Part shown: positions 1 through 53,840 of the stretch, piece by piece
Layout of the letters: each line of letters begins with the position of its first letter
How positions within the stretch are numbered: the first letter of the stretch is position 1
IMG/VR virus record: IMGVR_UViG_3300025671_000087
Span: 1 to 53,840 of that record
Direction: 5' to 3' (one strand)
DNA length: 53,840 bases
Source of the DNA: a virus
Lineage: Duplodnaviria > Caudoviricetes
The notes under the pieces: model-generated
The model's input: the letters and a program-made list of their open reading frames with translations, nothing else
Told to the model about the DNA's origin: nothing
Databases searched by the model: none
Translations under genes and position numbers: made by a program

Positions 1-33
1 TCAGATTTTACCTATTTTTATTTGTATGATAGT

Positions 34-498
34 TTATGCCGCCTGTTTAGCTTGCTGTTGAATTGCCGCAATCAAAGCAATAGGATCATACCCACGTTTT
101 AGCAAGTTGGTGGCAGCTTTGATATAGTCCAACTCGGTATCGGACTTTTCACCGGCAAAAGCCTTGGCCCAATTTGCTCCACGCATGGATGTTTCATCGC
201 CCACCAATTTTGCAAGGGTATCAACCGCCGCATTGCTTAGGGTAGCATCTTTAATTTTAATTGCGATACCGCCTGTTTTTGTTTTTGTGACTTTTGAGCC
301 GTCAAAGATTGCCGCAAACGTCACCCTGATTGCCCTTTCAGCCTGAGCATCACTCTTAGCTTTACAGGCGTTTAACAGTTTGACAATCACTGTAGTATCA
401 CGTTCAGCAATTACATGGTCAATTGCATCTTTGAACGCAACTCCCATTGCTTTGCCATTGCCAAGTGAACGATTAAAATTTGTGATAATAGTTTTCAT
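34..498 (-). CDS. hypothetical early protein (154 aa)
   Basis: Long ORF; ATG at 498 preceded by AAAGGACATGGGAAA is preferred to the track start at 555; no recognisable motif. Confidence 0.75.
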   Translation of the reverse strand: MKTIITNFNRSLGNGKAMGVAFKDAIDHVIAERDTTVIVKLLNACKAKSDAQAERAIRVTFAAIFDGSKVTKTKTGGIAIKIKDATLSNAAVDTLAKLVGDETSMRGANWAKAFAGEKSDTELDYIKAATNLLKRGYDPIALIAAIQQQAKQAA

Positions 499-534
499 TT
501 TCCCATGTCCTTTTCTGTTGGGGTTATTGTTTCG

Positions 535-1036
535 GTTGAAACATCGATAGGCCAAAGCAATTGCAATGGCCTACTGGATTTTCCAACCTTGTGGCGTTTA
601 TCCCTATCACTCAATCCGTATCAATAGGATTGAATGGATATGCCACTTGATATGAACCTCAATTCATACCGCATTGCATATCAGGACTATTACCTTTTAC
701 ATTTCGGGCTTTGCATTTGCCACCCGTGACCCTTTCCCCCATGGCCCTAAAACTATTATTGGCAATCTCTAAACTTCTTTCGATTTTTCTGGACTACTTC
801 TATTTGAAGTCACGCAGATTGTAAGAGCTATTGCCTAAGTCTTTGGGCAGGTGTCGGTCAAATCAGATTGTCAGTCTGATTGTCAGTTTACCGATATGGA
901 TTGAACTACCCTCATATTCCCACTGACTAAGGAATATAAACTTGGTTTTGTGATTGGCCGCAATTCCTAGTGGAATATTGACCGAAAACCTTGGTAGCTC
1001 AAAAATGTCAAATAACAGGCTATTAACTAGCTCTTA
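535..1036. ncRNA. candidate large structured RNA or structured early leader
   Basis: No ORF in the track here; many nested inverted repeats (see findings); most likely transcribed on the - strand. Confidence 0.4.
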
Positions 1037-1334
1037 AGGGACTTAAACGGGATAAAGTAGCAGCTATATATTCTGTTTGCGACTATTCATGTCTCTTTTG
1101 CGACAATTAGCATATTTTTTTAGTTTTTATTGCATTTTTATTTATTTGTTAATTAAATCAAGTATTTATACCCTTAAATAAATAAACAGAATAAAAACAG
1201 TAAGTTGCAGGGAATGGACTTTTTATAGGGTGACATAGCCTAAAACCTCTTTCGGGCTTGTACAGGGCTTATATTGAGTGTCAGGCCTATTTCACGTTTT
1301 GTTCTCGTTATGAGGCAATGCGGCAGGGTATATA

Positions 1335-1457
1335 TTAACTGAACGCCTGTTTAATTAACGTGGGGGTATACATTTACATATTCGAATGTATGAATGTATC
1401 ACTGTTGGTGGTTACTGTTGGTACTTGCCCGAGTTAATTGAACGCACGTTCAGTTAA
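1335..1457. promoter_or_regulatory. two copies of a 24-bp imperfect palindrome (operator-like)
   Basis: TTAACTGAAC-GCCT-GTTTAATTAA at 1335-1358 and TTAATTGAAC-GCAC-GTTCAGTTAA at 1434-1457. Confidence 0.5.
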
Positions 1458-1690
1458 TTGTTACAGTATAACACATTCGCATATTCATATGTAATCATAT
1501 ATTGTATAATACATCCATATATAAGAATACGTTGATATACGAACACATTCAAATTCTTGAATATGTCTGATAGTATTCACGATCTTGAATATGTTACGGG
1601 GGGTATGGGCCAGGGGGGTGTGCGTAGATAGTATATATGCCCAATGACAGAGATGGGATTTTTTAGTTTCGGTCAAAATGTCGCACCTAA

Positions 1691-1733
1691 ATGTGATCAC
1701 ATCGTGTTATCCATTATATTTTGTGATCACAAA
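1691..1733. repeat. two TGTGATCACA palindromes 30 bp apart
   Basis: ATGTGATCACAT at 1691-1702 and TTTGTGATCACAAA at 1720-1733. Confidence 0.6.
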
Positions 1734-1772
1734 TAAAATATCAATAAAAATAAAAATATTTTTGTCTACCCC

Positions 1773-1802
1773 TTGACGCCGGGGCATAGAGTATTATATA
1801 AT
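1773..1802 (+). promoter_or_regulatory. sigma70-type promoter
   Basis: TTGACG-N18-TATAAT with an upstream A/T-tract UP-like element. Confidence 0.6.
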
Positions 1803-1817
1803 ACTTAATGTAATTAT

Positions 1818-1920
1818 ACTTTAAGTAACTCTATGTTACTTAAAGTACCCTAAAGTAACTTTAAGTTTCTATTATCTCTTATATATTAATAGTTATTAAG
1901 TACTTTAAGTAACTTTAAGT
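1818..1920. repeat. 10-bp phased ACTTWAAGT repeat array
   Basis: Copies or variants at 1818, 1828, 1838, 1848, 1858, 1902 and 1912. Confidence 0.75.
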
Positions 1921-1968
1921 AGTACTTTATAGACGTACAAAGTTTTTTCTGTCGTCCAATTTAAAGTA

Positions 1969-1997
1969 TTGACTTTACCCCTCCCCCAAGGTATAAC
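1969..1997 (+). promoter_or_regulatory. sigma70-type promoter for the lysis/late arm
   Basis: TTGACT-N17-TATAAC(T). Confidence 0.65.
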
Positions 1998-2000
1998 TAT

Positions 2001-2255
2001 ATGAGAAAAAGACACATGTACGCCTCGGATAATGTCGTCGAAGAGTTCTATAGAGCTTTAGCCGACAAGAACGAAGGCAAAGTACGTAGAGTACACATAC
2101 CAAGATCCGATGTATTTTACGTAAGAGAAGCTATATTTCAAGACACTGGTACTAAATACTCTCTAGACAGAGTAGAAAGAGCAATGTTCCTAGAAGGAAT
2201 GCTCAATGCTAGAGACGTTTTTGACCCAGAACGAAAAAGAGATTGGGAAGATTGA
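2001..2255 (+). CDS. hypothetical protein
   Basis: First ORF of the + arm; the start may be the second ATG (2016), given the promoter position. Confidence 0.75.
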   Translation: MRKRHMYASDNVVEEFYRALADKNEGKVRRVHIPRSDVFYVREAIFQDTGTKYSLDRVERAMFLEGMLNARDVFDPERKRDWED

Positions 2256-2500
2256 TGGCTAAAACAGTATTAGACGACTGGAAGGTACTTCCAAGGCTAA
2301 TGATGCTGGCAGTGACTGTCCTGACTTATCAGGCGGTACATTGGTTCATGTCGTTACCTGACCCTAGTGTAGCTCAATCAGGTCTTGTATCGGTCTGTAT
2401 GGGTGCTTTAACTGGTTGCTTTGGTATTTGGATGGGTAAAGAGTCTAAAACAACTGTAACTCCCACAAGAGTCGTTCACGAAGAGAAGTATAGCAAATGA
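2255..2500 (+). CDS. small membrane protein (two TM segments; holin/antiholin candidate)
   Basis: Two hydrophobic segments; TGATG coupling at 2255; lies in the lysis cassette. Confidence 0.65.
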   Translation: MAKTVLDDWKVLPRLMMLAVTVLTYQAVHWFMSLPDPSVAQSGLVSVCMGALTGCFGIWMGKESKTTVTPTRVVHEEKYSK

Positions 2501-2853
2501 TTGGTCAGATTATAGGTGCTGTAGGTGGACTAGCTACCAGTTATCTTGATGGTAAGGTAGCAGTACAGAAAGCCAACGCAGAAATCAAAGTAAAACAAGC
2601 TACAGGTGAGATTGACTGGGACATTGCTGCAATGAACAGCACCCAGAACTCCTGGAAAGACGAGTGGATCACTCTACTTTTCTCTATTCCCCTTATTTTA
2701 GCCTTCTGTGGAGACTGGGGTAACGAAATTGTACAAGCTGGCTTTACATCTTTAGAAGCTATGCCCACTTGGTATCAATATTCACTAGGTGGTATTGTTA
2801 GTGCCAGCATTGGTATGAGATCAGTATCTAAATTCTTTACAGGGAAGAAATAA
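2497..2853 (+). CDS. putative holin
   Basis: SWKDEW motif followed by TM segments and a basic C-terminus; directly upstream of the endolysin. Confidence 0.6.
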   Translation: MIGQIIGAVGGLATSYLDGKVAVQKANAEIKVKQATGEIDWDIAAMNSTQNSWKDEWITLLFSIPLILAFCGDWGNEIVQAGFTSLEAMPTWYQYSLGGIVSASIGMRSVSKFFTGKK

Positions 2854-3305
2854 TGTCCTTTAAATTATCAAATCGCAGTCTTGCTAAGATGGAAGGCGTA
2901 GATGAAAGCCTAGTTGCTGTAGTCAAACGTGCTATCGAGCTTACCAAAGTAGACTTTGGGGTAATCTATGGTTTGAGAACAGTAGAAGAGCAAGAGAAGC
3001 TTGTAGCTGCTGGTAAATCCCAAACTATGAAGTCCAAACACCTAGAAGGTAGAGCCGTAGACCTTATGGCCTATGTGGATGGTAAAGGTGTCTGGGAACT
3101 GAATGTCTACGATGACCTTTGTGACGCAATGAAAGAGGCAGCTAAAGAACTTGGTGTAGCAATCAAGTGGGGTGCAGCCTGGTCTGAAGGAGATATTCGG
3201 ACTTATCCTGGTACAGCTGAAGATGCAATGATGGCCTACGTAGACTTACGTAGAAGCCAAGGGCGTAGACCCTTCATTGATGGCCCTCACTTTGAATTAA
3301 TGTAA
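2853..3305 (+). CDS. endolysin, peptidase M15 family (L-Ala-D-Glu peptidase-like)
   Basis: GLRTxEEQ, SKHLEGRAVD, WGAAW and DGPHFEL motifs. Confidence 0.9.
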   Translation: MSFKLSNRSLAKMEGVDESLVAVVKRAIELTKVDFGVIYGLRTVEEQEKLVAAGKSQTMKSKHLEGRAVDLMAYVDGKGVWELNVYDDLCDAMKEAAKELGVAIKWGAAWSEGDIRTYPGTAEDAMMAYVDLRRSQGRRPFIDGPHFELM

Positions 3306-11433: not shown

Positions 11434-11624
11434 TGCACAACCTAAAGCCTTTAGTAAATGATAAAGCTCTGTGGGAATCTTTTCTTGCAGAGCTTAACAC
11501 CCGATTAGCTGAAGTCCATCGTCAGATGGAACAAGCAAACTCAGCAGAAGATCTGTACAGGCTACAAGGCCAAGCAGCTTGCCTTAATAAATTTAAGTAT
11601 CTTAGGGAAAAAGTAAATGGCTGA
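11433..11624 (+). CDS. small conserved post-portal protein
   Basis: LYRLQGQ motif; coupled to the portal gene. Confidence 0.75.
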   Translation: MHNLKPLVNDKALWESFLAELNTRLAEVHRQMEQANSAEDLYRLQGQAACLNKFKYLREKVNG

Positions 11625-14600
11625 GGTAGGTAAATCTACAAAGATTGACAAAGGTAAATTGGCCAGTCAAACTGAAGAAGCCCTAGGCTGGGCGGCAGAG
11701 GGTAAAAAGTTTGCAGATGCAAATCCAGTAAAAGTAGGAGAAAACCAAGAGTCTACTGCACTATCAATTGCTGACGTGCCAGTCTTTGATAGACCTATTG
11801 ATGCTAGTGAAAATGATAGGTGGACTGGTGTTCAAGATGAACTTGGTAATCGTCAATATAAAACTATATTCGGTAGAACTTACTTTGTAAGACCTGCAGA
11901 AGATCAAAGAAGTAATTACGAAAAGATACAACAGGATATTATTCCTGTTGTTAAAAGGTATTTAGACAACCCCACTGCCCCCTCTAGAGAGCAAACTATT
12001 AATTTTCTAAAAGAATCTTTAGGTGCTGCTTGGGAAACCTTTAAGATACCGGGTGATCTTGCCGCAGGTAACAAAGGTATGGAAGATGTTACACTAGGCA
12101 ACATCTTTGAGTTAGCTGGTGGTACAGGTGCTGCATCTACTGTAGGTAAAGTTCCTGGTGGGGACTCTTCTAATACAATGAGAGTCTTTGGTGGCCCTGG
12201 AGCAAGAGATTACCGAGGCCGTGCACTAGAAAAAGCTGCAAAAATGAAATCGGAAGGTGCTTCTGATGCAGAAATAGAAGAAATGACTGGTAGGGTTGCT
12301 ACAGCTGCTCCAGGATCAGAAATTTCTAAAGGTTTTTCATATCAATATAAATTTGAAATACCTGATGCAGAAATAAAAATAGAAAATCCAGTTGCAAATT
12401 ATGCAGATGGAAATGGTTTAACAGTCAAGGAAAGTTTAGAACAAGTCACTAATAAACCTGGTGAAGGTTTTAGCTTAGAATCTTTTATACCAAGTCATTC
12501 TGAATTATTTAGACAATACCCAGATATAAAAGACACTATTGTAAGCTTCACGGACGAGCCAGGTTATTTAGGTTTTTATGATTCCTCTAACAATTCTATA
12601 AATATAGCTACAGAACTTTTTGAAAAGGGTGTAAACAGTCCAGAATTCAGGTCAACTTTTTTTCATGAGTTACAACATGCTTTACAAGCAAAAGATTTTA
12701 TTGTAACCGGCATGGATTTTATTGCTAATAATAACATAGAAGCTATGAAAGTTTTAAGTGGATCAAGAAAAGATTCTCATGGAAAGAGCCTGTTTGAAAC
12801 ACATCTAAAAGATGATAAAAACTTGTTAAACACTCGAAGTGAGTTGCTAGCTCTCGGAGAAGAAATACTAAAAAATCCAAATTCAAAAAAACTTTCTGAA
12901 AAATTAGCTTATAAATATCAACAATTGCGAGATGAAGTATACTTAAACTATTTGAGGTATGGTAAAGAAGTTGAAGCCCGCATTGCAGGGGAAAGGGCAA
13001 CGGGTACAAAAGGTAGGTCTGTTGTTGAGGAGAAAGCTAATCAATTACCGGATAGAGTAGAGTTTGGGTCTAAGATAAATAAACCCCCTAATTTTTTAAA
13101 TAGGTTATCTAAAGCACTGGGCATGCGCCCAGCAAAAATGACTCCAAAGTATTTACAAAAAAATATTGACGAAGCTATGGATTTTATTACCTCTTACAAT
13201 GAGGCAGAAGACTATAGCCTTGCTAAGACTATGATGAAGTCTCTTGACAATCCAGAACCTAACTCTAGTCCTAACCAAATTAAAAGATACCGAGATGACA
13301 TTGACCCAGAAGTGTATGATGCTTTTGACGAGCTAGCAGAAATACAAAGAGGTGCTCCAGAACTGGCAATGACTTCTGCACAAAGGGTTTTACAGGGCGG
13401 GGTACTTAGCTACGCACTTGAGCACACTGGCGATCTTACACACAGGATGGCTGAAAAAGGTGGTGTATATGGGTCAGAGTATGTTAAACCAAAAGTTAAT
13501 AGGTTGCTTGACAGTTTAACAAGTGAGTACGGTTTTGAAAAAGAACACCTAGAAAACTTAAAAAATAGTGCACAGTTTAACTACGATAACCTTGGTAGAG
13601 GTACTAATCTATCTTTTGAGCAGTTCTATAAAGAGTACGTAGACAAAGCACAAGAGAAAATTAAAGCCTATGCAGAAGAACATAAAAAAGTTCCTGTGTA
13701 CAATGACATGCAATTAGCTGGACGAGAAGCTGCAATTGCAATAGGTGAAGGTAGATACACAGATGCTATAGAACATTTGTACACAATTAAAATGGCTATA
13801 GATGATGGTAGTTACTCTCAAAAAGCTATAGAATTTAATCCTAAAATAGACTTTCGAAAAAATTCAGATCAGGGATTTGCCCAAGGAGGCGAAGTAGGTA
13901 ATATGAGCATGAAAAAACAGATGTCACTCTTTGAGTATGGTGGAATTGCTGACGATGGCATGAATAAAGACCCAGTGTCCGGTAACAATGTACCTCCAGG
14001 TTCTCTTGCTAAAGAAGTACGAGATGATATTCCTGCTATGCTGTCGGAGGGTGAGTACGTAGTCCCTGCCGATGTCCTTCGTTACTACGGAGTAAATTTC
14101 TTTGAGAATCTACGTGGTCAAGCAAAACAGGGCTTGAACACTATGGAACAAAATGGTAGGATTGGTGGAACTCCAATGACGCAACAAGATGTTGCTCGTA
14201 ATATGCAACAACCTATGGCTCCTGCACCTGTCCAAGCTGCTCAAGGAGCTATGATGCAATCTCCAATGAGGGTTCAACAACAGCCAGCCCCTCAAGCTGT
14301 AGGTAATTCAGGGATTCCTACGCAAGGCTATGCTGGTGAGGATGGGTCTATAGTTTCTAGATGGAGTCCTGCAAGAGCACGTTACTCCTCTCCCATGTTT
14401 CAAGGTACGTCCTCACAACAGGCTAATATTCAAACAGCTCAAGAACAAGCAGCTACTGAATCAATTACTTACATGAGAACCCACTATAACCAGAATGGAG
14501 AATCTATTCAGGTTGCTTATGAAGGTACTGACCCAGCAAGTGCAACACCTAAAGCAGGGCAGGATCAACTCCTATCCGATTACCCACTTACCGAAGAAGA

Positions 14601-15441
14601 GTGGATAGCTTATAAGTCAGAGATGAGCAAAAATACTGGTGACGATGGTGGCTCAGGAGGTGGTGGAGACACTACTGTTTCTGGTGGTTCTGATACAAGC
14701 TGGATGGATGGAATTGACTTTGGTGACACAGCTTCTGTTAAAAAATGGGTAGAATCTGACGATGGTTTAGGTATGTCTGGAGGTGCAAGAGACCTTGCAG
14801 ATAGGGGGGTCATAGGATTAATACCACAGGGAATACAAGCTCAAGATATTGCTAAAGCAAGGGGTATTCGTAACTATTACGATAGCATAGGCGATACAGA
14901 GATGGTTGACTACCTAGATGGCAAGATTAAGGAAGCCGCAGCCGAAGGTGGGATATTATTTTCTGCTTTAGATAAGTTGGGTCTTTTAACTGGTAAATCT
15001 TACTTAGAGCAGATAAAATCCTTTGCACCTACTAGTTTAGATTTACAAAGGACATTTACTGCAGATCAAAGAAAAGAATTTACCGATACCTCTGGCGACA
15101 TGGTTAAAGATGAAGGTGGGGCTTCTGTTTACAAACCTGGTGGTATTGATGTTGCAATGTTGGATACTAGTGATGACGGTCCTGGACTTACTGCCGCAGA
15201 ACAACATGCGGTTAATACGTCGAGAGCTAGGGCTGCTGCAAGTACAGCAGCTACAGAAGCAGCTTTTGAAGCTGGTGCAAGCACAAATACTGCGGAAGAA
15301 ATTCAGGACTTTAAACAAAAAGTTGAAGAAGCAGGTGGTACTTGGGCTACAAGTGGACGTGCAGAAGGCGGTCTAATGACCACCCCCAAACCAAAGAAGA
15401 AAAGCAAACCTAAGAAGACAGGGCTTGCAGGTAAGAAATAA
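11617..15441 (+). CDS. large multidomain (polyvalent-type) protein with HExxH metallopeptidase/LPD23-like domain
   Basis: KFEIPD...H-x2-LFRQYP...GFYD...HELQHALQ...EVEAR; a later DDIPAMLSEGEYVVP domain; low-complexity linkers. Confidence 0.75.
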   Translation: MAEVGKSTKIDKGKLASQTEEALGWAAEGKKFADANPVKVGENQESTALSIADVPVFDRPIDASENDRWTGVQDELGNRQYKTIFGRTYFVRPAEDQRSNYEKIQQDIIPVVKRYLDNPTAPSREQTINFLKESLGAAWETFKIPGDLAAGNKGMEDVTLGNIFELAGGTGAASTVGKVPGGDSSNTMRVFGGPGARDYRGRALEKAAKMKSEGASDAEIEEMTGRVATAAPGSEISKGFSYQYKFEIPDAEIKIENPVANYADGNGLTVKESLEQVTNKPGEGFSLESFIPSHSELFRQYPDIKDTIVSFTDEPGYLGFYDSSNNSINIATELFEKGVNSPEFRSTFFHELQHALQAKDFIVTGMDFIANNNIEAMKVLSGSRKDSHGKSLFETHLKDDKNLLNTRSELLALGEEILKNPNSKKLSEKLAYKYQQLRDEVYLNYLRYGKEVEARIAGERATGTKGRSVVEEKANQLPDRVEFGSKINKPPNFLNRLSKALGMRPAKMTPKYLQKNIDEAMDFITSYNEAEDYSLAKTMMKSLDNPEPNSSPNQIKRYRDDIDPEVYDAFDELAEIQRGAPELAMTSAQRVLQGGVLSYALEHTGDLTHRMAEKGGVYGSEYVKPKVNRLLDSLTSEYGFEKEHLENLKNSAQFNYDNLGRGTNLSFEQFYKEYVDKAQEKIKAYAEEHKKVPVYNDMQLAGREAAIAIGEGRYTDAIEHLYTIKMAIDDGSYSQKAIEFNPKIDFRKNSDQGFAQGGEVGNMSMKKQMSLFEYGGIADDGMNKDPVSGNNVPPGSLAKEVRDDIPAMLSEGEYVVPADVLRYYGVNFFENLRGQAKQGLNTMEQNGRIGGTPMTQQDVARNMQQPMAPAPVQAAQGAMMQSPMRVQQQPAPQAVGNSGIPTQGYAGEDGSIVSRWSPARARYSSPMFQGTSSQQANIQTAQEQAATESITYMRTHYNQNGESIQVAYEGTDPASATPKAGQDQLLSDYPLTEEEWIAYKSEMSKNTGDDGGSGGGGDTTVSGGSDTSWMDGIDFGDTASVKKWVESDDGLGMSGGARDLADRGVIGLIPQGIQAQDIAKARGIRNYYDSIGDTEMVDYLDGKIKEAAAEGGILFSALDKLGLLTGKSYLEQIKSFAPTSLDLQRTFTADQRKEFTDTSGDMVKDEGGASVYKPGGIDVAMLDTSDDGPGLTAAEQHAVNTSRARAAASTAATEAAFEAGASTNTAEEIQDFKQKVEEAGGTWATSGRAEGGLMTTPKPKKKSKPKKTGLAGKK

Positions 15442-28202: not shown

Positions 28203-31200
28203 ATGGCCAGCAATTTAAATAACGTAGAGAAACTACTTGTCAGTTCGCACGGGTTTACAGATAACGGGGACGGTACAGTAACTGCTCCTAGCGGAGCTTT
28301 GTATGATGGCGAACAGGGTGGCTATTACACTGCTACGGGCGCATCACCCGTATTAAATACTGGTCCTGGTAGTGCCATCGAAAACCTTGCAGATTTAACA
28401 TATTTGTCGCAGAATACTGGCGTATCTAGTGCAGTACTAAATGCAGCTTACGAGTCTGTAGGCATTGATTCAAGTGATCCTTTTGCTTTTGGCGAGGCGC
28501 ATAAGCTCCTTAGGAACAATGGGTATAAACCAGGTGAAAATATTGGGTTCTACGGAAGCAATCAAGCAGTTGATGAGGGTGCTAAACTTCTTCAACAACG
28601 TTGGCAAGAAGCTCCTACTGAGGAAGAATTGGCTGAAGCTGGCCTAAGTGGGATGACTGTTATTAACAGTAATACTGCTAACAGTGAGTGGCTTACTAAT
28701 GCTTTGGCGGCTAGTAACATTGATACGAATAAAACAAATGCTATAACTGGCCAAAAAGCTGACTACTCCGATCTAGACGGGCGGTTAAAAGACAACTCTT
28801 ATTGGGGTTCTAAAATTAACGAATTTGGATCCTACGACAATGCTACTCTTGATATGATGGAGTGGGAAGAGTTGAAAAAGAAAATGGAGGAAACTACTCC
28901 TGGGGGTTCTGGCAACAATGCTACAGGTATTGTTACCGGAGGTACTGCAACTGACTCTGGTGCAGGTGGAATTTCTGGTGGGTTTACTGCAGATTCAAAT
29001 ACTCTAGACATTCCAGATTCTGCAGTGTTACCCACATTTACTGGTGGTGTATCTCAAGTAAGTCCTGGTGCTTCTGGTACTTACACAGTACCTGCTCAGA
29101 CTTTTGAAGATAATATTACAAACCAAGTTAAAGACTTTAAAGATAGGGCTGTAGAACAGCAACAGTTTTACCAGCCACAAACTATAGCAGAAAAAGAAGC
29201 TGCAGGTCAGGATGTATCTTCGTATGCATTAAGTCAAAAGCTGTACCGTAATCCTAGTACTGGCCATCAAATATTTATTCCGTTTCAAGGTAGTCAACCA
29301 CTGCAAGCAGTTCCTGCAGGTTACTACGAAGTAAATCAGCAGACGGGTACTATGGGTACTGGTGTCTTTAATCCTATTACAGCTGGTGGTAATACGTTTA
29401 CTGGTGCCAACACTGGCGGGGTAATTCAGGGTTATTCTGGAGAAGATGGCTCAGTAGTTTCTCCTAATCCGAATCCCATTGATCCTAATCAAATCTACGG
29501 TGATGTAAGTTTTACTGACCCTGTAACTGGCCAAGTAATTACACAAACTCCTGAAGAATATTTTCAGTCTCTAGCTAACAAACAAGCACAAGCTACGTTT
29601 AACCCTGCTACCTCTGTAGCAATGCCTGGTGTATCTACTATGGCAGAGCTAGGTTATGAATACAATGCTGATGGTACAGTTAAGTTAGACCCAGCTACTG
29701 GTCAACCTATGACAAAAGAGTTAATGCCTGGGACTGTCTTAGAGTCTACTGCAGGTCAAGCTCAAGCACTGGCCCCTGTGATTGGTAAAAGGCAAGCTAC
29801 AGATGCTTCAGGTAATCTTATGTTCGATACTGCAGGTCAACCTATTATGGTTGGTGCAGACCCTGCACAAGTAGGTCAAGTAGTTCAAGCTAAAGGTCCA
29901 GGAACCCCTGCAATGTATGACGAAGCAGGTAACCTTCTTTCAGAAGCAGTGGACATTCCTGGAGCAGCTCAAGTAGGTCTAACTACTGCAGCACCTGGAA
30001 TAGCTACACAGCTTCAAGGTGGTACTACAACTAACTACCAGGGTATGGCCGATGCTGTAGCAGGAGCTAACTGGGATGTTACGACTGGTACATTTAATAT
30101 GAACGGTCAGACATTTACTCCAGATCAGTTTATTGCAGCTAATAACTTAAATATTGGTGATTACTTAACCACTACTGGTGGTCTACAAGCTGCTCAGTTA
30201 TCTGACCTAACTCAAACAATTACAGGTCAAACAGATTATACTTCCTCAGTATCGGATCTTACAGCTGAAACAGGTTCATCCCAGACTGTAGCTGATGTCG
30301 CAGGTGAAGCCGGTCTACCCACTCGTACACTGCAGACAGGTCCAAATGGAGAGGTTATTACGGGTACTGGTGTAGACCAAGCTGCAGTTCAACAGGCCTT
30401 TGGTACTGGTGAAGTAGCTGCTGCATCTGTTCAAGATGAACTAGCAGGTCTTATGGCTCAATTCGAAGGTGGTGATACACCTGCATGGGCTGCAGGATCA
30501 ATGCGTAAAGCATCTCAAATGCTTGCAGCTAGAGGTCTTGGTGCTTCGTCTATGGCAGGTCAAGCAGTTATTCAAGCTGCTATGGAAGCTGCTCTACCTA
30601 TTGCTCAGATTGATGCTGGTAACAAACAGCAGATGGCTCTATTTAAAGCAGAGCAAAGAGCTAAGTTCTTAGGTCAAGAGTTTGATCAAGCCTTCCAAGC
30701 TAAAGTACAAAATGCAGCCAGAGTTTCTGAGATTGCTAATATGAACTTTAGTGCAGAGCAACAAATTGCTTTGGAAAACTCTCGTGCTGCAAACACTATG
30801 GATTTGCAAAACTTGAGCAACAAGCAAGCCCTCGTTATGTCTGAAGCTGCTGCACTATCTCAACTTGAGATGGCCAGCCTAAATAACCTACAACAAGCTC
30901 AAGTACAAAATGCGCAGAACTTCTTGCAGCTTGACATGGCTAACCTTAGCAACAATCAATCTACTGCACTGTTTAAAGCACAGCAAGTTAGCAATGCAAT
31001 GCTCAGTGATGCAGCTCAGGCTAATGCCTCTGCACAATTTAATGCCACAAGTACAAACCAAACTAACCAGTTCTTCTCAAACCTTGCAGCTCAAGTATCA
31101 CAGTTCAATGCAGCACAACAAAATGCTATTACTCAGTTTAATGCTGAAGAAGCTAATGCAATTCTTGAATTTAACTCTGCACTGCAAAACCAACGTGAGA

Positions 31201-31583
31201 TGTTTAATGCTCAAAACTACCTAGCAGTGGCTCAGGCTAATGCTCAGTGGAGACAGAACATCAACACTTCAAACACAGAAGCACAGAACATTGCTAGCCT
31301 CACCTATGCTAAAGAGGTAAATGGACTTACCCAAAAAGCTATAGATGACTACTGGCAAAAAGAAAGAGATATTATGTCCTATGCCTTTGCACAGTCTGAA
31401 GGTGCTGCTGATAGAGCACTCAAGATCCTTCTTGGTGAACAAAGCTTAACATCAATTAGAGAGCAGCTAGAGTTTAAAGAAGAAGAAAATAAAGCTGAGT
31501 TCTGGTCAGATCTGTTGTTTGGTGATCAAGGCTTTAGTGACGTCTTTAAAATGAAAGCTAAAAAAGAAGAAGAAGGAGCTTGA
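28203..31583 (+). CDS. internal virion (ejection) protein
   Basis: Gly/Thr-rich N-terminal part; ARGLGASSMAG and Gln/Asn/Ala-rich QFNA repeats. Confidence 0.7.
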   Translation: MASNLNNVEKLLVSSHGFTDNGDGTVTAPSGALYDGEQGGYYTATGASPVLNTGPGSAIENLADLTYLSQNTGVSSAVLNAAYESVGIDSSDPFAFGEAHKLLRNNGYKPGENIGFYGSNQAVDEGAKLLQQRWQEAPTEEELAEAGLSGMTVINSNTANSEWLTNALAASNIDTNKTNAITGQKADYSDLDGRLKDNSYWGSKINEFGSYDNATLDMMEWEELKKKMEETTPGGSGNNATGIVTGGTATDSGAGGISGGFTADSNTLDIPDSAVLPTFTGGVSQVSPGASGTYTVPAQTFEDNITNQVKDFKDRAVEQQQFYQPQTIAEKEAAGQDVSSYALSQKLYRNPSTGHQIFIPFQGSQPLQAVPAGYYEVNQQTGTMGTGVFNPITAGGNTFTGANTGGVIQGYSGEDGSVVSPNPNPIDPNQIYGDVSFTDPVTGQVITQTPEEYFQSLANKQAQATFNPATSVAMPGVSTMAELGYEYNADGTVKLDPATGQPMTKELMPGTVLESTAGQAQALAPVIGKRQATDASGNLMFDTAGQPIMVGADPAQVGQVVQAKGPGTPAMYDEAGNLLSEAVDIPGAAQVGLTTAAPGIATQLQGGTTTNYQGMADAVAGANWDVTTGTFNMNGQTFTPDQFIAANNLNIGDYLTTTGGLQAAQLSDLTQTITGQTDYTSSVSDLTAETGSSQTVADVAGEAGLPTRTLQTGPNGEVITGTGVDQAAVQQAFGTGEVAAASVQDELAGLMAQFEGGDTPAWAAGSMRKASQMLAARGLGASSMAGQAVIQAAMEAALPIAQIDAGNKQQMALFKAEQRAKFLGQEFDQAFQAKVQNAARVSEIANMNFSAEQQIALENSRAANTMDLQNLSNKQALVMSEAAALSQLEMASLNNLQQAQVQNAQNFLQLDMANLSNNQSTALFKAQQVSNAMLSDAAQANASAQFNATSTNQTNQFFSNLAAQVSQFNAAQQNAITQFNAEEANAILEFNSALQNQREMFNAQNYLAVAQANAQWRQNINTSNTEAQNIASLTYAKEVNGLTQKAIDDYWQKERDIMSYAFAQSEGAADRALKILLGEQSLTSIREQLEFKEEENKAEFWSDLLFGDQGFSDVFKMKAKKEEEGA

Positions 31584-34542: not shown

Positions 34543-37500
34543 ATGGCAGATGGATTTACTCTAGCTGATCTAGAGAAAGATGTTGTCGTACCTGATGTAG
34601 AGCCTATCATAACTACTCTGGAAACAACAACAGAGCCTACATCAGAGGTGCCTGAACTTACACCAGAAGTTCCTGTATCAGAACAACCTACAGTAGAAGT
34701 ACCCACTGAAGGGGAGCCTACATCTGAAGGGTTTACTCTGGGTGACTTATACCCTCAAACAGGTGTATCTGAGACACCAGTGCAGCAAGCACAAGATTTA
34801 AGCTCTCCATTTACACTAAAAGATCTTCAAGTTCCATTTGGAGGTTTTACCCTAGAGGCAGAAGATCGTTTTTTAAACGTATACGATATTTTTGATAAGT
34901 ACGACAATAAGCCTCTAACTAAAGAAGACATCATTGCTGATCCAGACCTTATGGAGATTGTGTACCAATCTTTAGAGGCAAGATTTCCCGAATCAACAAC
35001 CTTCGGTAAAGTTACTAAAAGTGTTGCAGGTGTGATGGGGGGTGCTACTGGCGGTTCTGCTCTAATGAACCGTAACTACAGGGCGATGGAGCCAGAAAAA
35101 GCATTTGAGATCTACCAAAATTATCAAAGAACTTTTGATGCTGCACAATCAGTTACTGTTGCTAATGAGATTACTTATACCCTGGGGGCAGACGACGAAA
35201 CTAAAAGACGCCTTGCTGGAGGGTACTTACTTTTTAACCAGATGGGTAATATCTTTACTGGTGAAGGTAGTTGGCCAGAGATGTTCGATGGTATCGTAGA
35301 CTACACCTCAGCTGCGGTATGGGATCCTGTAACTATCTTGTCGTTTGGTATAGGTAAAGTTTTAACTGCAGGGGGTACAAAAGCTACAGGTGCTGCACTT
35401 CAAAAAATGCTGACTGCAGCCTATACAGATGCTATTGAAAAAGGTGCTACAAAGAAAGCTGCAACTATTGCTATAAGCAATGCTATGGCAAAGGCTATGC
35501 CAATGGCTACGGTAGACGGTGCATTTGCACTTGGGCAAGACTTTGGTAGACAGATGCAGCTGATAGAAGTTGGTGCACAGGACGAGTACAGCAAGGCTGA
35601 AGGTGCTCTTACTGCTGCAGGATCTATGCTCTTTCCCGTAGTTGCAGGTGGATCAGCACTGTTTAAGGAAGCTAGAAGGTCTCCCTTTGCAAAGAATACT
35701 ATTCTTTCGTATCAAAACATCGACAAGATGATTAAGAAACATGGTCCAGATGAAGCTTGGAAAAAGCTTGGTCAGGCACTGGACAAGAACGGCTTGTTTC
35801 AATCTCTTGATGAACAGTTTGGTACGTTATCTGCTAGAGGTAAGATTAACTTCTTACCTTGGGAACAAGCTAAAGATGAAGCTGATAGGTTAATTGCTTC
35901 TAGGGGTGAAAAGAGAAGAGACCTTGCAGCCACTAATGCATTCTCTAAATTCTTTTGGTTTGGTGATCCAGAAAATGGAGTTAAAGGTTATTTTGAAGCT
36001 CTAAATGATGCTGGGTTTGTGATGCATCCAGAGATCATAAAGAAGTACAAGACAACTGGTGCCTTTGCAAGGACTATACGTTTTATTAATCCGTCTAAAC
36101 TTGATAAGATGGTTAAAACCTGGGAAGAAGAAACTGGTTACGTACTCGATGGTGTACGTACAGAAAAAGGTAAAGTCTCCCCTGCTATGATGGAAGCTGT
36201 AATGAAAAACAGCACTAGTTTGGCGGGTGAAAATCTGTGGATTGCATCTGAGCTGTCTAGATTGCAAAAGGCAGGTGTTAGTAACAAAGGTATGCTTGAG
36301 TTGTACAAGAGGATACAACCTTCGGAAGGTCCACAACACAATCAAGCTGCACTGTCTTTGTATAAACGACTAATTACCTCTCACCTATCTACTACTGGTG
36401 CTAACCTTCAAGGCTTTAAAACACTTGTATCTCTTAATACTGCTGCAGACTTTGTTGCCGGTGCTATAGATCTGTCTCGTGGTGCTATTGCAAAAGGTCT
36501 TGGTAACGAAGAGGCTGCAGTAAATTTTTACAACAGAGCCTATGGAGAGTGGGGTGGATCATTCCGCAGAGTTGCTGATGCATTGTCCCCAGATATCCCT
36601 ATTGAATATGCTGATGCTGTTCTTGCAATGAACCCTAAGATTGCAGAAAAGTTATTTAGAGATATTGCAGGTGACGGTGGTGTTACTGATTCTTTAGAGA
36701 TGTTTAATCTTGATGGAGCTTCTTACAAGAAACGACTTAAGGATGCTGGACCTGTAAGAACAGCTATAGGAAAGACTGAAGAGTTTCTTTGGAAGGGTGC
36801 TGATGCATACACAAAGGGTGTGCAAACACTAACATTAGCCAGGCTTCAGGATAACCTTACTAAACGTTTTGCTTTCGGTACAAACCTTAACCAGGGTATT
36901 ATGAAGAAGTATGGAGTAACTCCAGAGGAGTTCTTCTCCAATCCTGATGTAGAGTTTACTATGGCTAAACCAGAGTTCCGTGAGATCATGGAGCAAGCTG
37001 CTTACCGTACTATGAGGGAAACTGCCTCTGTAAACTGGTCTACCTTACCTGCTACAAACTTTATGAGAAAGTCTGCAAGGTTTATCGAAACAGTTACCAA
37101 CCGTTCTATGGGTGGTTATGTTGTACCTTTCGGGAGCTTCTTGAACACAACTATAGCAACTGCTGGAGATCTTAGTGGGGTAAACTACTTAAGATATGTT
37201 ACAGCTAAAACTATCGGTAAACAGATTGATCCTGTAACTGATGATGGTGTAGAACTATTTTCTAAAATGGTTGTAGGTTGGGGTGCAGTTAGCTACGGTG
37301 TTGGTGGTCAAATAGGATTTGAAACTGAAACTGGTGATAGTGCTGTCGAAAGAATAGAAAGTGGCCTGAGTTGGAAGCAAGATAGGCAGGACGATGGTAC
37401 GGTCAGGAACCGTGAGTTTGAATGGCCTATATCTCTGATAAGAGCTAGTAGCCAGGCCATTGCTCATGGTATGATTGAGACTGGTGAGATGGACATGTCT

Positions 37501-38433
37501 AAGGCAGCTCAACGTATGTTGACTGACTCTGAGTTCCGTAAAAGATTTATGTCAGGTATTCCTGACGATCTTTGGGTTGATCTTACAGTCCAGGTAGGTC
37601 CAGGGCAAGCACTGAGAGACCTTGACGATCTCGGAGCTTCTATGGGAAGATCTTGGCAGATGGCTAAAGATGGTGACTATGGTCCTCTTGCCTACAGTAT
37701 GCTTGCTGCATCAGGTTCGAAGGTAGTTTCTGGATTTACTCGCCATCTTGATCCAGTGAACACTGCTTATGGATTGCTTGAGGGTAAAGAGATGAACCCC
37801 GACCTTCGTCAAGGTAATAGATTTTTTAATGATGCAGGTCGTTACCTTAATCAACTTACCGGACAAGCAGAGGGTATGGAGAGAAGGGCTACACCTACAA
37901 GAGGCTTTGCTTCTGGAAAGGATGTAGATGTTGGTAAGCAACTAATGGTTAGGTCTTCTAAGAATCCTAACTTAGTTGAGGCTATGTTTAACTCAGCTGG
38001 TGCTAATATCTTTACCCAGGTTCGTTGGACTGGTCCTGCGAAAGTAAAGAACTACATGGACGGGATGTTAGCCCCTGCACTACAGACCCAGTCTGAATTG
38101 GCTATGGCTAAGTATCCTAATTACTTCAAGATGAGACAAGATCAAAAGGAACTTGTACTAAATGAGGTTAGAGAGGGTGCCAAGGCTATGGTAGTCAATC
38201 AGATGGAGAATGGTGGCCAAGTACCTCAAACAATGGATGTTGTAAGAAAACTTAGCAGTAAGAAAAAAGTAGTGGAAAAAGTATTAAACCTTCTACCATT
38301 TGAATTTGGAAGCACTGATACCTACGATCAAAAGATGGAGAAGATACTAGAGATGGAGGATGGTTATCAACAACTCTTAAAGATTAAAAATCTTGTTGAT
38401 ACCTACGACGACTGGAACAAAGTAGTTCAATAA
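34543..38433 (+). CDS. large internal virion protein (T7 gp16-like position)
   Basis: 1296 aa; last gene of the structural arm; N-terminal (G)FTLxDL repeats. Confidence 0.7.
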   Translation: MADGFTLADLEKDVVVPDVEPIITTLETTTEPTSEVPELTPEVPVSEQPTVEVPTEGEPTSEGFTLGDLYPQTGVSETPVQQAQDLSSPFTLKDLQVPFGGFTLEAEDRFLNVYDIFDKYDNKPLTKEDIIADPDLMEIVYQSLEARFPESTTFGKVTKSVAGVMGGATGGSALMNRNYRAMEPEKAFEIYQNYQRTFDAAQSVTVANEITYTLGADDETKRRLAGGYLLFNQMGNIFTGEGSWPEMFDGIVDYTSAAVWDPVTILSFGIGKVLTAGGTKATGAALQKMLTAAYTDAIEKGATKKAATIAISNAMAKAMPMATVDGAFALGQDFGRQMQLIEVGAQDEYSKAEGALTAAGSMLFPVVAGGSALFKEARRSPFAKNTILSYQNIDKMIKKHGPDEAWKKLGQALDKNGLFQSLDEQFGTLSARGKINFLPWEQAKDEADRLIASRGEKRRDLAATNAFSKFFWFGDPENGVKGYFEALNDAGFVMHPEIIKKYKTTGAFARTIRFINPSKLDKMVKTWEEETGYVLDGVRTEKGKVSPAMMEAVMKNSTSLAGENLWIASELSRLQKAGVSNKGMLELYKRIQPSEGPQHNQAALSLYKRLITSHLSTTGANLQGFKTLVSLNTAADFVAGAIDLSRGAIAKGLGNEEAAVNFYNRAYGEWGGSFRRVADALSPDIPIEYADAVLAMNPKIAEKLFRDIAGDGGVTDSLEMFNLDGASYKKRLKDAGPVRTAIGKTEEFLWKGADAYTKGVQTLTLARLQDNLTKRFAFGTNLNQGIMKKYGVTPEEFFSNPDVEFTMAKPEFREIMEQAAYRTMRETASVNWSTLPATNFMRKSARFIETVTNRSMGGYVVPFGSFLNTTIATAGDLSGVNYLRYVTAKTIGKQIDPVTDDGVELFSKMVVGWGAVSYGVGGQIGFETETGDSAVERIESGLSWKQDRQDDGTVRNREFEWPISLIRASSQAIAHGMIETGEMDMSKAAQRMLTDSEFRKRFMSGIPDDLWVDLTVQVGPGQALRDLDDLGASMGRSWQMAKDGDYGPLAYSMLAASGSKVVSGFTRHLDPVNTAYGLLEGKEMNPDLRQGNRFFNDAGRYLNQLTGQAEGMERRATPTRGFASGKDVDVGKQLMVRSSKNPNLVEAMFNSAGANIFTQVRWTGPAKVKNYMDGMLAPALQTQSELAMAKYPNYFKMRQDQKELVLNEVREGAKAMVVNQMENGGQVPQTMDVVRKLSSKKKVVEKVLNLLPFEFGSTDTYDQKMEKILEMEDGYQQLLKIKNLVDTYDDWNKVVQ

Positions 38434-49603: not shown

Positions 49604-50488
49604 TCATACTCTTTGTCTCCTATCTAATGCAGACTTTGCGGTTTTTAAACTAAACTTGTTGTACGGATTTAAACTTTGTACATGCTTATGACCTGATACA
49701 GATTGAATTGCAAGATGGTCTACACCACTCTCGATCATCTGCACAATGGCGGTCTTTCTTAAGTCACCCACTCGGAGGTCATCAGGAAGCCCTGCAGCAG
49801 CCTTAACGTCTGTAAGCAGTGTTGTCATCTGAACAATCGTTAGAGGCCTGTAGGCACTGTCCTGTGGCCTGTGGTGAGGTACTACGTAGGGCTGGAAGTC
49901 CCAGTCCTCTTTCTGCTGTTTGAGCATCGTGAGTAAGTTGTCTGGAATAGGTAGCTCAACAGTTGCACCTCGTTTGCTTTGAGTGATTGTCACTACCTCA
50001 TTCTCAAGGTCAACTTGATCCCATTGCAAGTTGCGTATGTCTATGGGTCTCTGCCCCCATTCATAACACATCAAGATAATCAGCCCAAGGTTTCTCCAGT
50101 CGAAGTTTTGGAATGCTGCGTCGAGGCATGATAGTACTTGGTCGTGCGTCCAGATAACTGAACGTGGCTCACTTGTACGTTTCCGTACTCGTGACATAGG
50201 ATTGGTAGGCATCTTCTCCATCGTGATCAGATAGTTCATCAGGACGGAGAATATACGTGCCTTGTGGTTTGCATTGGATGTAGATGTCTCCATCTCCCAC
50301 GTATCGTATATCTCCGTGCAAAGTGGGACGTTAAGATTCTTGATGGAGATATTACCCAGAGTCCTACCACCTACGGACATACGACAGAAAGAATGTAGTG
50401 CCGACTCGTAACCTTTTTGAGAGGATGCTGCCAGTGATGCAAACTGCCGTGTGTGTAGGTATTCATCTACTGCTGTTCTAAATCTCAT
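49604..50488 (-). CDS. int: tyrosine recombinase/integrase
   Basis: WGQRPIDI (R), QSKRG (K), GDLRKT (R), SGH (H), LNPY (Y); ATG at 50488 after AGGAAAG. Confidence 0.85.
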   Translation of the reverse strand: MRFRTAVDEYLHTRQFASLAASSQKGYESALHSFCRMSVGGRTLGNISIKNLNVPLCTEIYDTWEMETSTSNANHKARIFSVLMNYLITMEKMPTNPMSRVRKRTSEPRSVIWTHDQVLSCLDAAFQNFDWRNLGLIILMCYEWGQRPIDIRNLQWDQVDLENEVVTITQSKRGATVELPIPDNLLTMLKQQKEDWDFQPYVVPHHRPQDSAYRPLTIVQMTTLLTDVKAAAGLPDDLRVGDLRKTAIVQMIESGVDHLAIQSVSGHKHVQSLNPYNKFSLKTAKSALDRRQRV

Positions 50489-50532
50489 ATCTTTCCTAAC
50501 CAGTGTGTACAATCGTCATGTGGATCGTCCAT
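50485..50532 (-). CDS. 15-aa peptide coupled to int (not in ORF track)
   Basis: GGAGG SD; MDDPHDDCTHWLGKI; stop overlaps the int start (ATGA). Confidence 0.5.
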   Translation of the reverse strand: MDDPHDDCTHWLGKI

Positions 50533-50548: not shown

Positions 50549-50625
50549 TGGCCCACCCTGCAGGACTCGAACCTGCAACCTACTGCTTAGAAGGCAGTTG
50601 CTCTATCCAGTTGAGCTAAGGGTGG
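50549..50625 (-). tRNA. tRNA-Arg(UCU)
   Basis: Cloverleaf: CCACCCT/AGGGTGG acceptor, GCTC/GAGC D stem, ACTGC-CT-TCT-AA-GCAGT, GCAGG-TTCGAGT-CCTGC, encoded CCA. Confidence 0.97.
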
Positions 50626-53799: not shown

Positions 53800-53840
53800 G
53801 TTACCTCCTAGTTAAGTAATTGTTTTAGTTGGGATATGAT

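Follow-up and report, generated by a model that had tools for sequence, protein, structure and literature searches.

A large, conserved structured RNA on the minus strand of an HMO-2011-type marine phage genome

GOLLD, ROOL, OLE, HEARO and raiA are RNAs of several hundred nucleotides (nt) with covarying helices, long-range stems and conserved loops; they were discovered comparatively in sequences from uncultured material, and their function is unexplained. GOLLD and ROOL are often borne by phages or prophages. To our knowledge, very few bacterial or phage RNAs of such size and complexity are known, and none of these five has been described as tied to one downstream protein gene. The present work concerns the virus record IMGVR_UViG_3300025671_000087, analysed over all of its 53,840 nt (hereafter the window), which encodes on its minus strand, upstream of a gene that we call gene A, an RNA resembling this group in size, in structural features, in the manner of its discovery and in being borne by a phage. 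It differs from the group in having no Rfam match, in always lying directly ahead of gene A and in carrying structure up to the start codon. We regard it as close to certain that the minus strand here encodes a genuine structured RNA, conserved in evolution and belonging to a new family. With moderate confidence, we interpret the tract from about 1058 to 499 as a large cis-acting leader RNA, resembling a riboswitch or attenuator, of gene A and the replication-side operon.

In layout, riboswitch and attenuator leaders resemble this RNA in position, strand, the presence of a covarying core and of mutually exclusive helices and, in one clade, a terminator-like hairpin (S2, described below). The RNA is, however, two to five times larger than known aptamers, has at least three structured domains upstream of the presumed platform, matches no riboswitch or T-box model of Rfam and has, in the window's clade, neither a terminator nor a sequestered ribosome-binding site. 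The ligand of such a switch cannot be guessed, because gene A has no known function. The phage immunity and antitermination RNAs (P4 CI RNA, P1/P7 c4 RNA and HK022 put RNAs) are likewise leader RNAs of early operons in integrase-carrying phages. They are simple RNAs of about 70–80 nt that decide whether transcription runs on into the operon; the present RNA is far larger and has no Rfam C4 match, and no repeats that could serve as targets of one of its loops were noticed, although no search was aimed at them. The IscB-omega RNA (HEARO), the IS110 bridge RNA and ToxIN share with it a structured RNA directly 5' of a strictly co-inherited gene. Gene A, in contrast, encodes a helical protein of 154 amino acids (aa) with no detected nuclease, recombinase or ToxN-like fold, and the RNA is not repetitive and has no transposon ends.

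Candidates from the same kind of source, IMG/VR intergenic regions, were reported in a survey by Fremin, Bhatt and Kyrpides (2023; PMC10690425). In the parts of that paper available to us, the candidates (8,495 from DNA viruses) have covariation evidence and some lie directly upstream of phage genes, but they measure 29–151 nt (mean 67) against at least 400 nt here; overlap with fragments of the present RNA is possible. Six short boxes of our RNA were not found in the searchable part of its supplements, the alignment files probably lying outside that search.

Gene A served as the handle for collecting relatives: 16 viral and 80 metagenome loci were fetched, one more was added via a DNA pattern, and removal of duplicates left 74 distinct regions upstream of gene A. 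The core of the RNA was described by a covariance model, R1, built from a 30-sequence seed (144 positions, 36 pairs). Its elements are as follows.

591-736, minus strand: core, made up of hairpin P1 and a three-way junction (R1)
705..726, minus strand: hairpin P1, pairs 726-722/709-705 and 720-719/714-713, with the conserved loop GCAAAUGCAAA at 720-710
593..694, minus strand: three-way junction of P2, P3 with P3a, and P4 (R1)
694-692/595-593 and 687-684/603-600, minus strand: P2 (covariation, R1)
682-676/643-637, minus strand: P3 (covariation, R1)
668-661/658-651, minus strand: P3a (covariation, R1)
636-630/614-608, minus strand: P4 (covariation, R1)
676-666, 653-643, 628-616 and 602-593, minus strand: conserved unpaired junction boxes CAAUGCGGUAU, AUAUCAAGUGG, CCUAUUGAUACGG and GAUAAACGCC, respectively

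R1 matches 63 loci (E < 1e-12), representing 62 of the 74 distinct upstream regions. In the R1 alignment 95.1% of 2207 cells are paired and 30 of the 36 pairs have changed on both sides; none of 500 shuffles was as good, and control alignments in which the partner was slid by 1–3 columns paired at 35–41%. The stem of P1 alternates among GGG/CCC, GUG/CAC, GCA/UGC and CGA/UCG types across the relatives. A loop-loop pairing of UUGAUA in the P4 loop with UAUCAA at the base of P3a was considered and rejected: four relatives have a G to A change in the loop without a matching change.

The tract had been singled out in a first-pass annotation, made from the letters alone, as about 500 nt of nested helices, a candidate large phage RNA. 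The wealth of pairing in it is genuine, but it belongs to an RNA of the minus strand, and other helices take the place of about half of those drawn at that time. Between 591 and 646, the annotated pairing TCAATCC/GGATTGA (611-617/627-633) is P4, whereas GTGGC/GCCAC and TATCC/GGATA are unsupported, as is TGATATG/CATATCA (648-654/677-683); taken jointly, these last three are 52.8% paired, against 53.2% in shuffles. Covariation re-pairs their bases as P2, P3 and P3a. All the short motifs had been placed correctly to within a base.

Two further domains lie upstream of the core.

751..894, minus strand: middle domain (its model, R2, spans 912-725), with hairpin 881-875/867-861 and long-range stems
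841-838/754-751, 834-830/766-762 and 827-824/770-767, minus strand: long-range stems of the middle domain, enclosing hairpin 818-806/800-788
901..1002, minus strand: distal domain, a long-range stem 1002-993/910-901 around two arms
990-985/949-944 with 983-980/959-956 and 976-973/966-963, minus strand: first distal arm
940-930/921-911, minus strand: second distal arm

The covariance model R2 was built from a 19-sequence alignment; the fold of 725-912 from these sequences has 33 pairs, 28 of them changed on both sides, and the loop CAUAUAG of hairpin 818-806/800-788 is conserved. R2 matches 53 loci at E <= 0.01. Its alignment has 95.9% of cells paired and 31 of 33 pairs changed on both sides (0/500 shuffles as good; 33–46% paired in slid controls). 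For the distal domain, RNAalifold on 12 sequences of the window's wider clade gives 44 pairs, 16 of which have changed on both sides, and the fold of the single sequence returns the same helices. Sequence similarity to 737-1110, covering the middle and distal domains, is found in 29 of the 73 other upstream regions.

The hairpins annotated at 861-881, 914-937 and 963-976 are borne out by covariation. Other annotated helices of this part fare less well. CGTGAC/GTCACG (725-730/809-814) is 70.5% paired with little covariation, and the hairpin at 832-849 is only 43.4% paired. The 9-base-pair (bp) helix 822-830/1028-1036, proposed to close a whole domain, exists among 12 aligned sequences only in the window and L010, with 6 bp left in L026; 824-834 pairs instead with 762-770, with compensatory changes. 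The long-range helix 854-861/978-985 is compatible with the alignment (84.4% paired in 12 sequences), but a single C-G to U-A exchange tests it weakly and RNAalifold pairs part of it locally instead.

Among the 69 regions with at least 477 nt of upstream sequence, R1 is present in 60, R2 in 49 and both in 47, and R2 matches lie directly upstream of the R1 match in the loci compared. From this distribution of domains, most relatives have a conserved RNA of at least about 410 nt (912-502), and the window's clade one of about 530–560 nt. Its conservation extends to phages with gene A proteins that share only about 40% identity.

Folding of 535-1036 is better than that of dinucleotide shuffles on both strands, with z −3.35 on the plus strand (0/100 shuffles as good) and z −5.92 on the minus strand; the minus strand of 499-1060 folds to −177.4 kcal/mol (z −7.20). 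Cells with G-U far outnumber cells with A-C in the core (216:17), in the middle domain (143:10) and in a further count (15:2), and the folded strand is therefore the window's minus strand. All strong model matches are on the strand of gene A (63/63 for R1 at E < 1e-12 and 53/53 for R2 at E <= 0.01). In a broader listing for the core model (82 rows), the opposite strand appears only in three of the weakest (E 0.0065–0.41). As annotated from the start, the tract has no credible open reading frame (ORF): on both strands of 499-1060 there are 13 open frames of at least 25 codons, of which not one persists at full length and without a stop in more than 4 of 73 relatives. The covariation of R1 and R2 upholds the early view that the tract forms a large folded RNA and is not a collection of DNA operators.

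The absence of Rfam matches agrees with the early view that this is a phage RNA outside known families. With Rfam 15 over the whole window at gathering thresholds, the single match is the transfer RNA (tRNA) at 50552-50625; no model of GOLLD, ROOL, OLE, HEARO, T-box, riboswitches, C4 or phi29 pRNA was met. At E <= 10, positions 300-2200 give seven weak rows, all microRNA or snoRNA models far below thresholds. At E <= 5, 14 homologous loci (53.5 kb) give four weak, unrelated rows, which do not recur and all lie outside the leader. GOLLD is named in the part of a preprint available to us (bioRxiv 10.1101/2024.12.08.627333). We found no literature joining HMO-2011 with noncoding RNA, and the HMO-2011-type genome papers found contain no mention of noncoding RNA or promoters.

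The RNA is strictly linked to one gene.

498..34, minus strand: gene A, ORF of 154 aa, basic (pI 9.6), first gene of the minus-strand operon

There are 71 homologues of gene A among metagenome proteins. In a search starting from the RNA, a pattern made from two conserved boxes gave 31 stretches in the viral collection, 13 of them true R1 matches. Gene A stands right behind the core in 12 of the 12 core-positive loci with enough downstream sequence, the 13th ending at a contig end, and behind none of the 18 chance pattern matches. A cultured relative, Roseobacter phage CRP-9 (GenBank MW514246), has neither gene A nor an R1 or R2 match. At the equivalent place, CRP-9 has 1255 nt without annotated genes (54903-56157, from gp73 to the record end; gp01 starts at base 1). 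No DNA match, near or distant, to 400-2100 or 500-2000 was found in GenBank phage records, and no match to gene A in GenBank phages by tblastn. A pattern-limited scan of species-representative prokaryote genomes for gene A relatives found none, and hence no prophage copy or host.

AlphaFold2 predicts, with a confident model (pLDDT 89.4), that the gene A protein is mostly helical. Searches of PHROG, Pfam and NCBIfam gave no match, the only row being a sub-threshold Pfam rhabdovirus nucleoprotein (E 0.027). Foldseek against PDB gave no clear match (best E 0.6), VIA-align returned generic helical bundles with a best Z of 7.4, below the meaningful level for helical matches, and the matches in ESM Atlas are unnamed viral clusters only.

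Between the core and gene A lies a tail in which the core's end is separated from the start codon by 88–166 nt (58 unique tails).

534..588, minus strand: long hairpin P5, outer stem 588-581/541-534, middle 579-577/545-543, inner 574-567/554-547
528..543, minus strand: small hairpin S2 (543-538/533-528), from covariation in alignment A8
502..522, minus strand: hairpin CCCA/UGGG (522-519/505-502), with the ribosome-binding site AAAGGA (513-508) in its loop
498-496, minus strand: start codon AUG of gene A

The tail alignments (A6–A8) were made with plain MAFFT and are not structure-aware. P5 is present in the minimum-energy fold of nearly all unique tails, although its arms come in at least 10 different sequences; when 31 tails are aligned, 80% of its cells are paired and 17 of 21 pairs have changed on both sides. 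The annotated TAGGCCA/TGGCCTA (548-573) within an imperfect stem 535-587 is this hairpin. S2 is the sole helix that RNAalifold retains on alignment A8. It is 89.3% paired, against 24–51% in slid controls; all six pairs have changed on both sides, in 54 cells compared with 20.9 in shuffles. P5 and S2 cannot coexist, because the 5' arm of S2 uses 541-538 of the 3' arm of the P5 outer stem. Two mutually exclusive helices are thus both maintained by compensatory change. The small stem around the ribosome-binding site is exchanged for GUCUU/AAGAC in other clades; on an unrefined alignment it is weakly supported, with 53.2% of cells paired and four of four pairs changed on both sides. Structure with compensatory change accordingly reaches up to the start codon.

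Hairpins followed by a U-tract occur in 21 of the 58 unique tails, and in seven tails of one clade this hairpin is S2 itself. In that clade the combination of S2 and U-run resembles an intrinsic terminator, which would make P5 the corresponding anti-terminator.

At the other end of the RNA, conserved elements lie around a conjectured start of transcription.

1001..1014, minus strand: conserved single-stranded box UAUUUGACAUUUUU (alignment)
1019..1031, minus strand: 5' hairpin (GCUAGUUAAUAGC) (alignments)
1065..1070, minus strand: TATATA, candidate −10 element (conservation; absent from the promoter-scan listing)
1104-1097 and 1083-1076, minus strand: two direct GTCGCAAA boxes, 21 nt apart, a repeat family upstream of the structured part

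The UAUUUGACAUUUUU box, with up to two mismatches, is found in 28 of the 74 upstream regions, 334–608 nt ahead of the start codon. The conserved TTGACA inside it was tried as a sigma-70 promoter and rejected, with no −10 partner at promoter spacing in any clade. In relatives, hairpins of unrelated sequence occupy the position of 1019-1031, directly ahead of the box. TATATA or TATAAA is kept at 1065-1070 in five close relatives, and TATATAGG, CTATAT and TTGACA-like hexamers stand at comparable places in other clades. As a −10 element it would set the 5' end of the RNA near 1058, which is a guess. The GTCGCAAA boxes, conserved in the window's clade and several others, are candidate protein-binding sites or part of a promoter region.

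These features suggest a multi-domain leader consisting, from its 5' end, of the 5' hairpin, the distal and middle domains, P1, the three-way junction and P5. The upstream domains would most likely be the sensor; they might respond to a small molecule, to a protein (that of gene A or another one from phage or host) or to the polymerase during transcription. The last 60 nt would most likely be the output. There, the 3' arm of the P5 outer stem may pair either with its 5' partner, forming P5, or with the next few bases, forming S2, and this choice would decide whether transcription or translation enters gene A and the genes behind it. We favour a cis-acting leader because of the fixed position on the strand of the gene, the sensor-like core and the bistable element beside the ribosome-binding site. 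The RNA occupies a 5' untranslated region, on the strand of the gene and at a short, kept distance from one gene family; its covarying, sensor-like domain has invariant junction and loop bases, and its platform helices are mutually exclusive. Of the roles put forward in the first-pass annotation (decoy, anti-defence RNA or processed leader), the processed leader is closest to what the anatomy suggests.

Several observations weigh against the leader. The hairpin S2 is weak (−4 to −8 kcal/mol, compared with about −25 to −30 for the tail bearing P5). It is also often not significant in per-sequence shuffles of the downstream sequence, a mixed test since the arm boundaries vary by clade, for which reason the alignment-based test was used instead. 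None of the 21 tails with hairpin and U-tract is from the window's clade, and a terminator scan of window positions 1-2300 returned no terminator-like site. In the same clade a hairpin loop holds the ribosome-binding site, with no visible sign that the site is sequestered. Three loci, L061, L062 and L063, keep the middle domain (R2 matches) and P1, with the P1 loop just about 110 nt ahead of the start codon, and are without the three-way junction, which is therefore not indispensable. A sensor of more than 400 nt would also far exceed the riboswitch aptamers known to us.

The contigs of RNA libraries bear on the same question. In Logan, contigs of four metatranscriptome runs from four studies cover late genes of the phage, and the leader sequence is present in these libraries: one contig (X2, from a relative with 23 differences) covers 519-795 and another (X4) 799-988. 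Both also fit a separate RNA, and the X2 contig ends at 519, just past S2 and about 20 nt ahead of the start codon. The four runs have no contig over gene A (1-501) or over 988-1060, where missing cover is no evidence either way. Contigs tell nothing of strand, ends or level, and RNA libraries may contain DNA. Elsewhere in the noncoding gap, contigs are found over 1492-1771 (X2, identical) and 1415-1623 (X3).

The best-surviving alternative, less probable than the leader but a serious possibility, is a free-standing stable RNA, terminated or processed before the ribosome-binding site of gene A and acting in trans. Its roles could include host takeover, decoy or anti-defence activity, a scaffold, or a ribonucleoprotein partnership with the gene A protein, and its position would reflect co-inheritance. 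The architecture, in which more than 100 pairs show compensatory change and long-range stems combine with a three-way junction and seven conserved unpaired boxes, suits such an RNA; in size and intricacy it is closer to GOLLD, ROOL and OLE than to ordinary leaders. It would also account for the contigs over 519-795 and 799-988, with the X2 end after S2, and for a gene A that is basic, always adjacent and of no known family. On the other hand, covarying structure continues to the start codon, the exclusive P5 and S2 helices beside the ribosome-binding site resemble a cis-acting platform, and neither the scan of 1-2300 nor the 58 tails provides a canonical terminator in the window's clade; the contigs, for the reasons given, cannot show ends or abundance. 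The leader and the stable RNA are not exclusive, as a leader can be processed into a stable RNA.

The window is a linear record with an estimated completeness of 97%. Its major head protein shares 81% identity with the counterpart in Roseobacter phage CRP-9 and 68% with the one in Puniceispirillum phage HMO-2011, which identifies the window as an HMO-2011-type marine podovirus. HMO-2011-type phages are a dominant, widespread marine virus group according to the part of PMC9038755 available to us. From 2001 to 38433 the plus strand carries lysis, packaging and structural genes, including the large terminase, portal and major head protein (ORFs and PHROG matches). From 53799 down to 38913 the minus strand carries genes for a DNA-binding protein, a peptidase, an integrase beside a tRNA, a primase-helicase, a family-A DNA polymerase and ribonucleotide reductase. 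The RNA lies in the gap between these blocks.

2853-3305, plus strand: endolysin (PHROG match)
499-2000 (1.5 kb): noncoding gap between the divergent blocks, with plus-strand lysis and structural genes on one side and the minus-strand operon on the other

A gap of 1.4–2.1 kb is kept in all 13 loci in which both flanking genes are present. The genes for the DNA-binding protein and the 531-aa protein found at the window's right end lie behind gene A in relatives, on its strand and about 1.2 kb further on; the operon that gene A heads carries the DNA-binding protein, primase-helicase and polymerase genes. This gene order places the break of the contig within the minus-strand operon, with gene A as the first gene of that operon. 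The intervening 1.2 kb presumably corresponds to small genes, unannotated here; about this length of the relatives' sequence is absent between the window ends 1-33 and 53800-53840. The first-pass annotation had placed the RNA ahead of the first early gene. The plus-strand genes from 2001 onwards serve lysis, packaging and structure and are not early genes; the RNA precedes the minus-strand ORF 498..34 at the head of an operon. A parallel drawn with the RNase III hairpins of T7 finds no footing: the 18 large ORFs scanned include no recognizable phage RNA polymerase, and such hairpins are far simpler than the present structure.

Other features of the genome were noted. The tyrosine integrase (49604-50512, minus strand) directly adjoins the tRNA gene (50552-50625, minus strand), which fits a phage integrating at a tRNA gene. 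Three very large plus-strand ORFs are without a PHROG match: 11617-15441 (1274 aa), 28203-31583 (1126 aa) and 34543-38433 (1296 aa). Within the gap, the noncoding block 1415-1800 is near-invariant in the window and its three closest relatives despite diverging flanks. It contains two TGTGATCACA palindromes (1692-1701 and 1722-1731) flanking a minus-strand TATAAT, as well as a G-rich run at about 1598-1624, and its fold has a z of only −2.0 on the minus and −3.5 on the plus strand. This block is probably an operator and promoter region between the divergent operons, or else a further transcript. A strong sigma-70-like promoter, TTGACG-18-TATAAT, lies at 1773-1802 on the plus strand. Direct and inverted boxes of the ACTTTAAGTAAC type follow at 1817-1925, ahead of the first plus-strand gene, and vary in number among relatives.

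It is improbable that the RNA is linked to replication itself, serving at the front of the replication operon as a structured pre-primer or as an origin RNA, on the principle of ColE1 RNA II or of the T7 primary origin. The gap conserved between the divergent operons is where one would look for an origin, the operon behind it encodes primase-helicase and family-A DNA polymerase, and AT-rich tracts and repeats adjoin. The RNA nevertheless goes strictly with gene A, and not with the genes for replication: in CRP-9, which shares the replication module and the gap, gene A and the RNA are both absent. No structural feature suggests a site for an RNA-DNA hybrid.

Still less probable is pairing at the DNA level, as cruciforms, as hairpins that single-stranded DNA forms at a packaging site or an origin, or as palindromic operators in arrays. 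Except for wobble pairs the helices are symmetric between strands, the plus strand also folds better than shuffles, and genuine palindromic, operator-like sites stand nearby at 1692-1731. Against this are the excess of G-U over A-C cells in the core and middle domains (although G-T wobble is possible in single-stranded DNA), the long-range nested stems, three-way junction and conserved loops, which are unlike operators, and, as weak evidence, the RNA-library contigs over the region. We give hardly any credence to the plus-strand RNA at 535-1036 as first drawn, closed by 822-830/1028-1036 ahead of the plus-strand genes: the z of −3.35 and a 9-bp helix perfect in the window itself are outweighed by the wobble asymmetry, the better folding of the minus strand (z −5.92 and −7.20), a closing helix present in two of 12 sequences and partially in one, the failure of five of the drawn helices in the covariation test, and plus-strand genes that are late, start at a distance of about 1 kb and have a strong promoter to themselves (1773-1802).

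Whether as the sensor of a novel type of riboswitch through which a host signal would gate the replication-side operon, or as the RNA part of a new RNA-protein machine with the gene A protein, the RNA may, tentatively, represent a new class of large ornate RNAs (at least 400 nt and more than 100 covarying pairs) with no described counterpart. Earlier large RNAs opened work on new ligands, RNA-guided enzymes and RNA-only assemblies. No phage in GenBank carries this RNA, but the covariance models and the helix map make it testable with synthetic RNA, so that no cultured phage is needed. As a switch, it would mark a control point where HMO-2011-type phages take in some signal ahead of the commitment to replicate; as a stable RNA or a particle of RNA and protein, it would be a new molecular player in the interplay of marine phages and their hosts.

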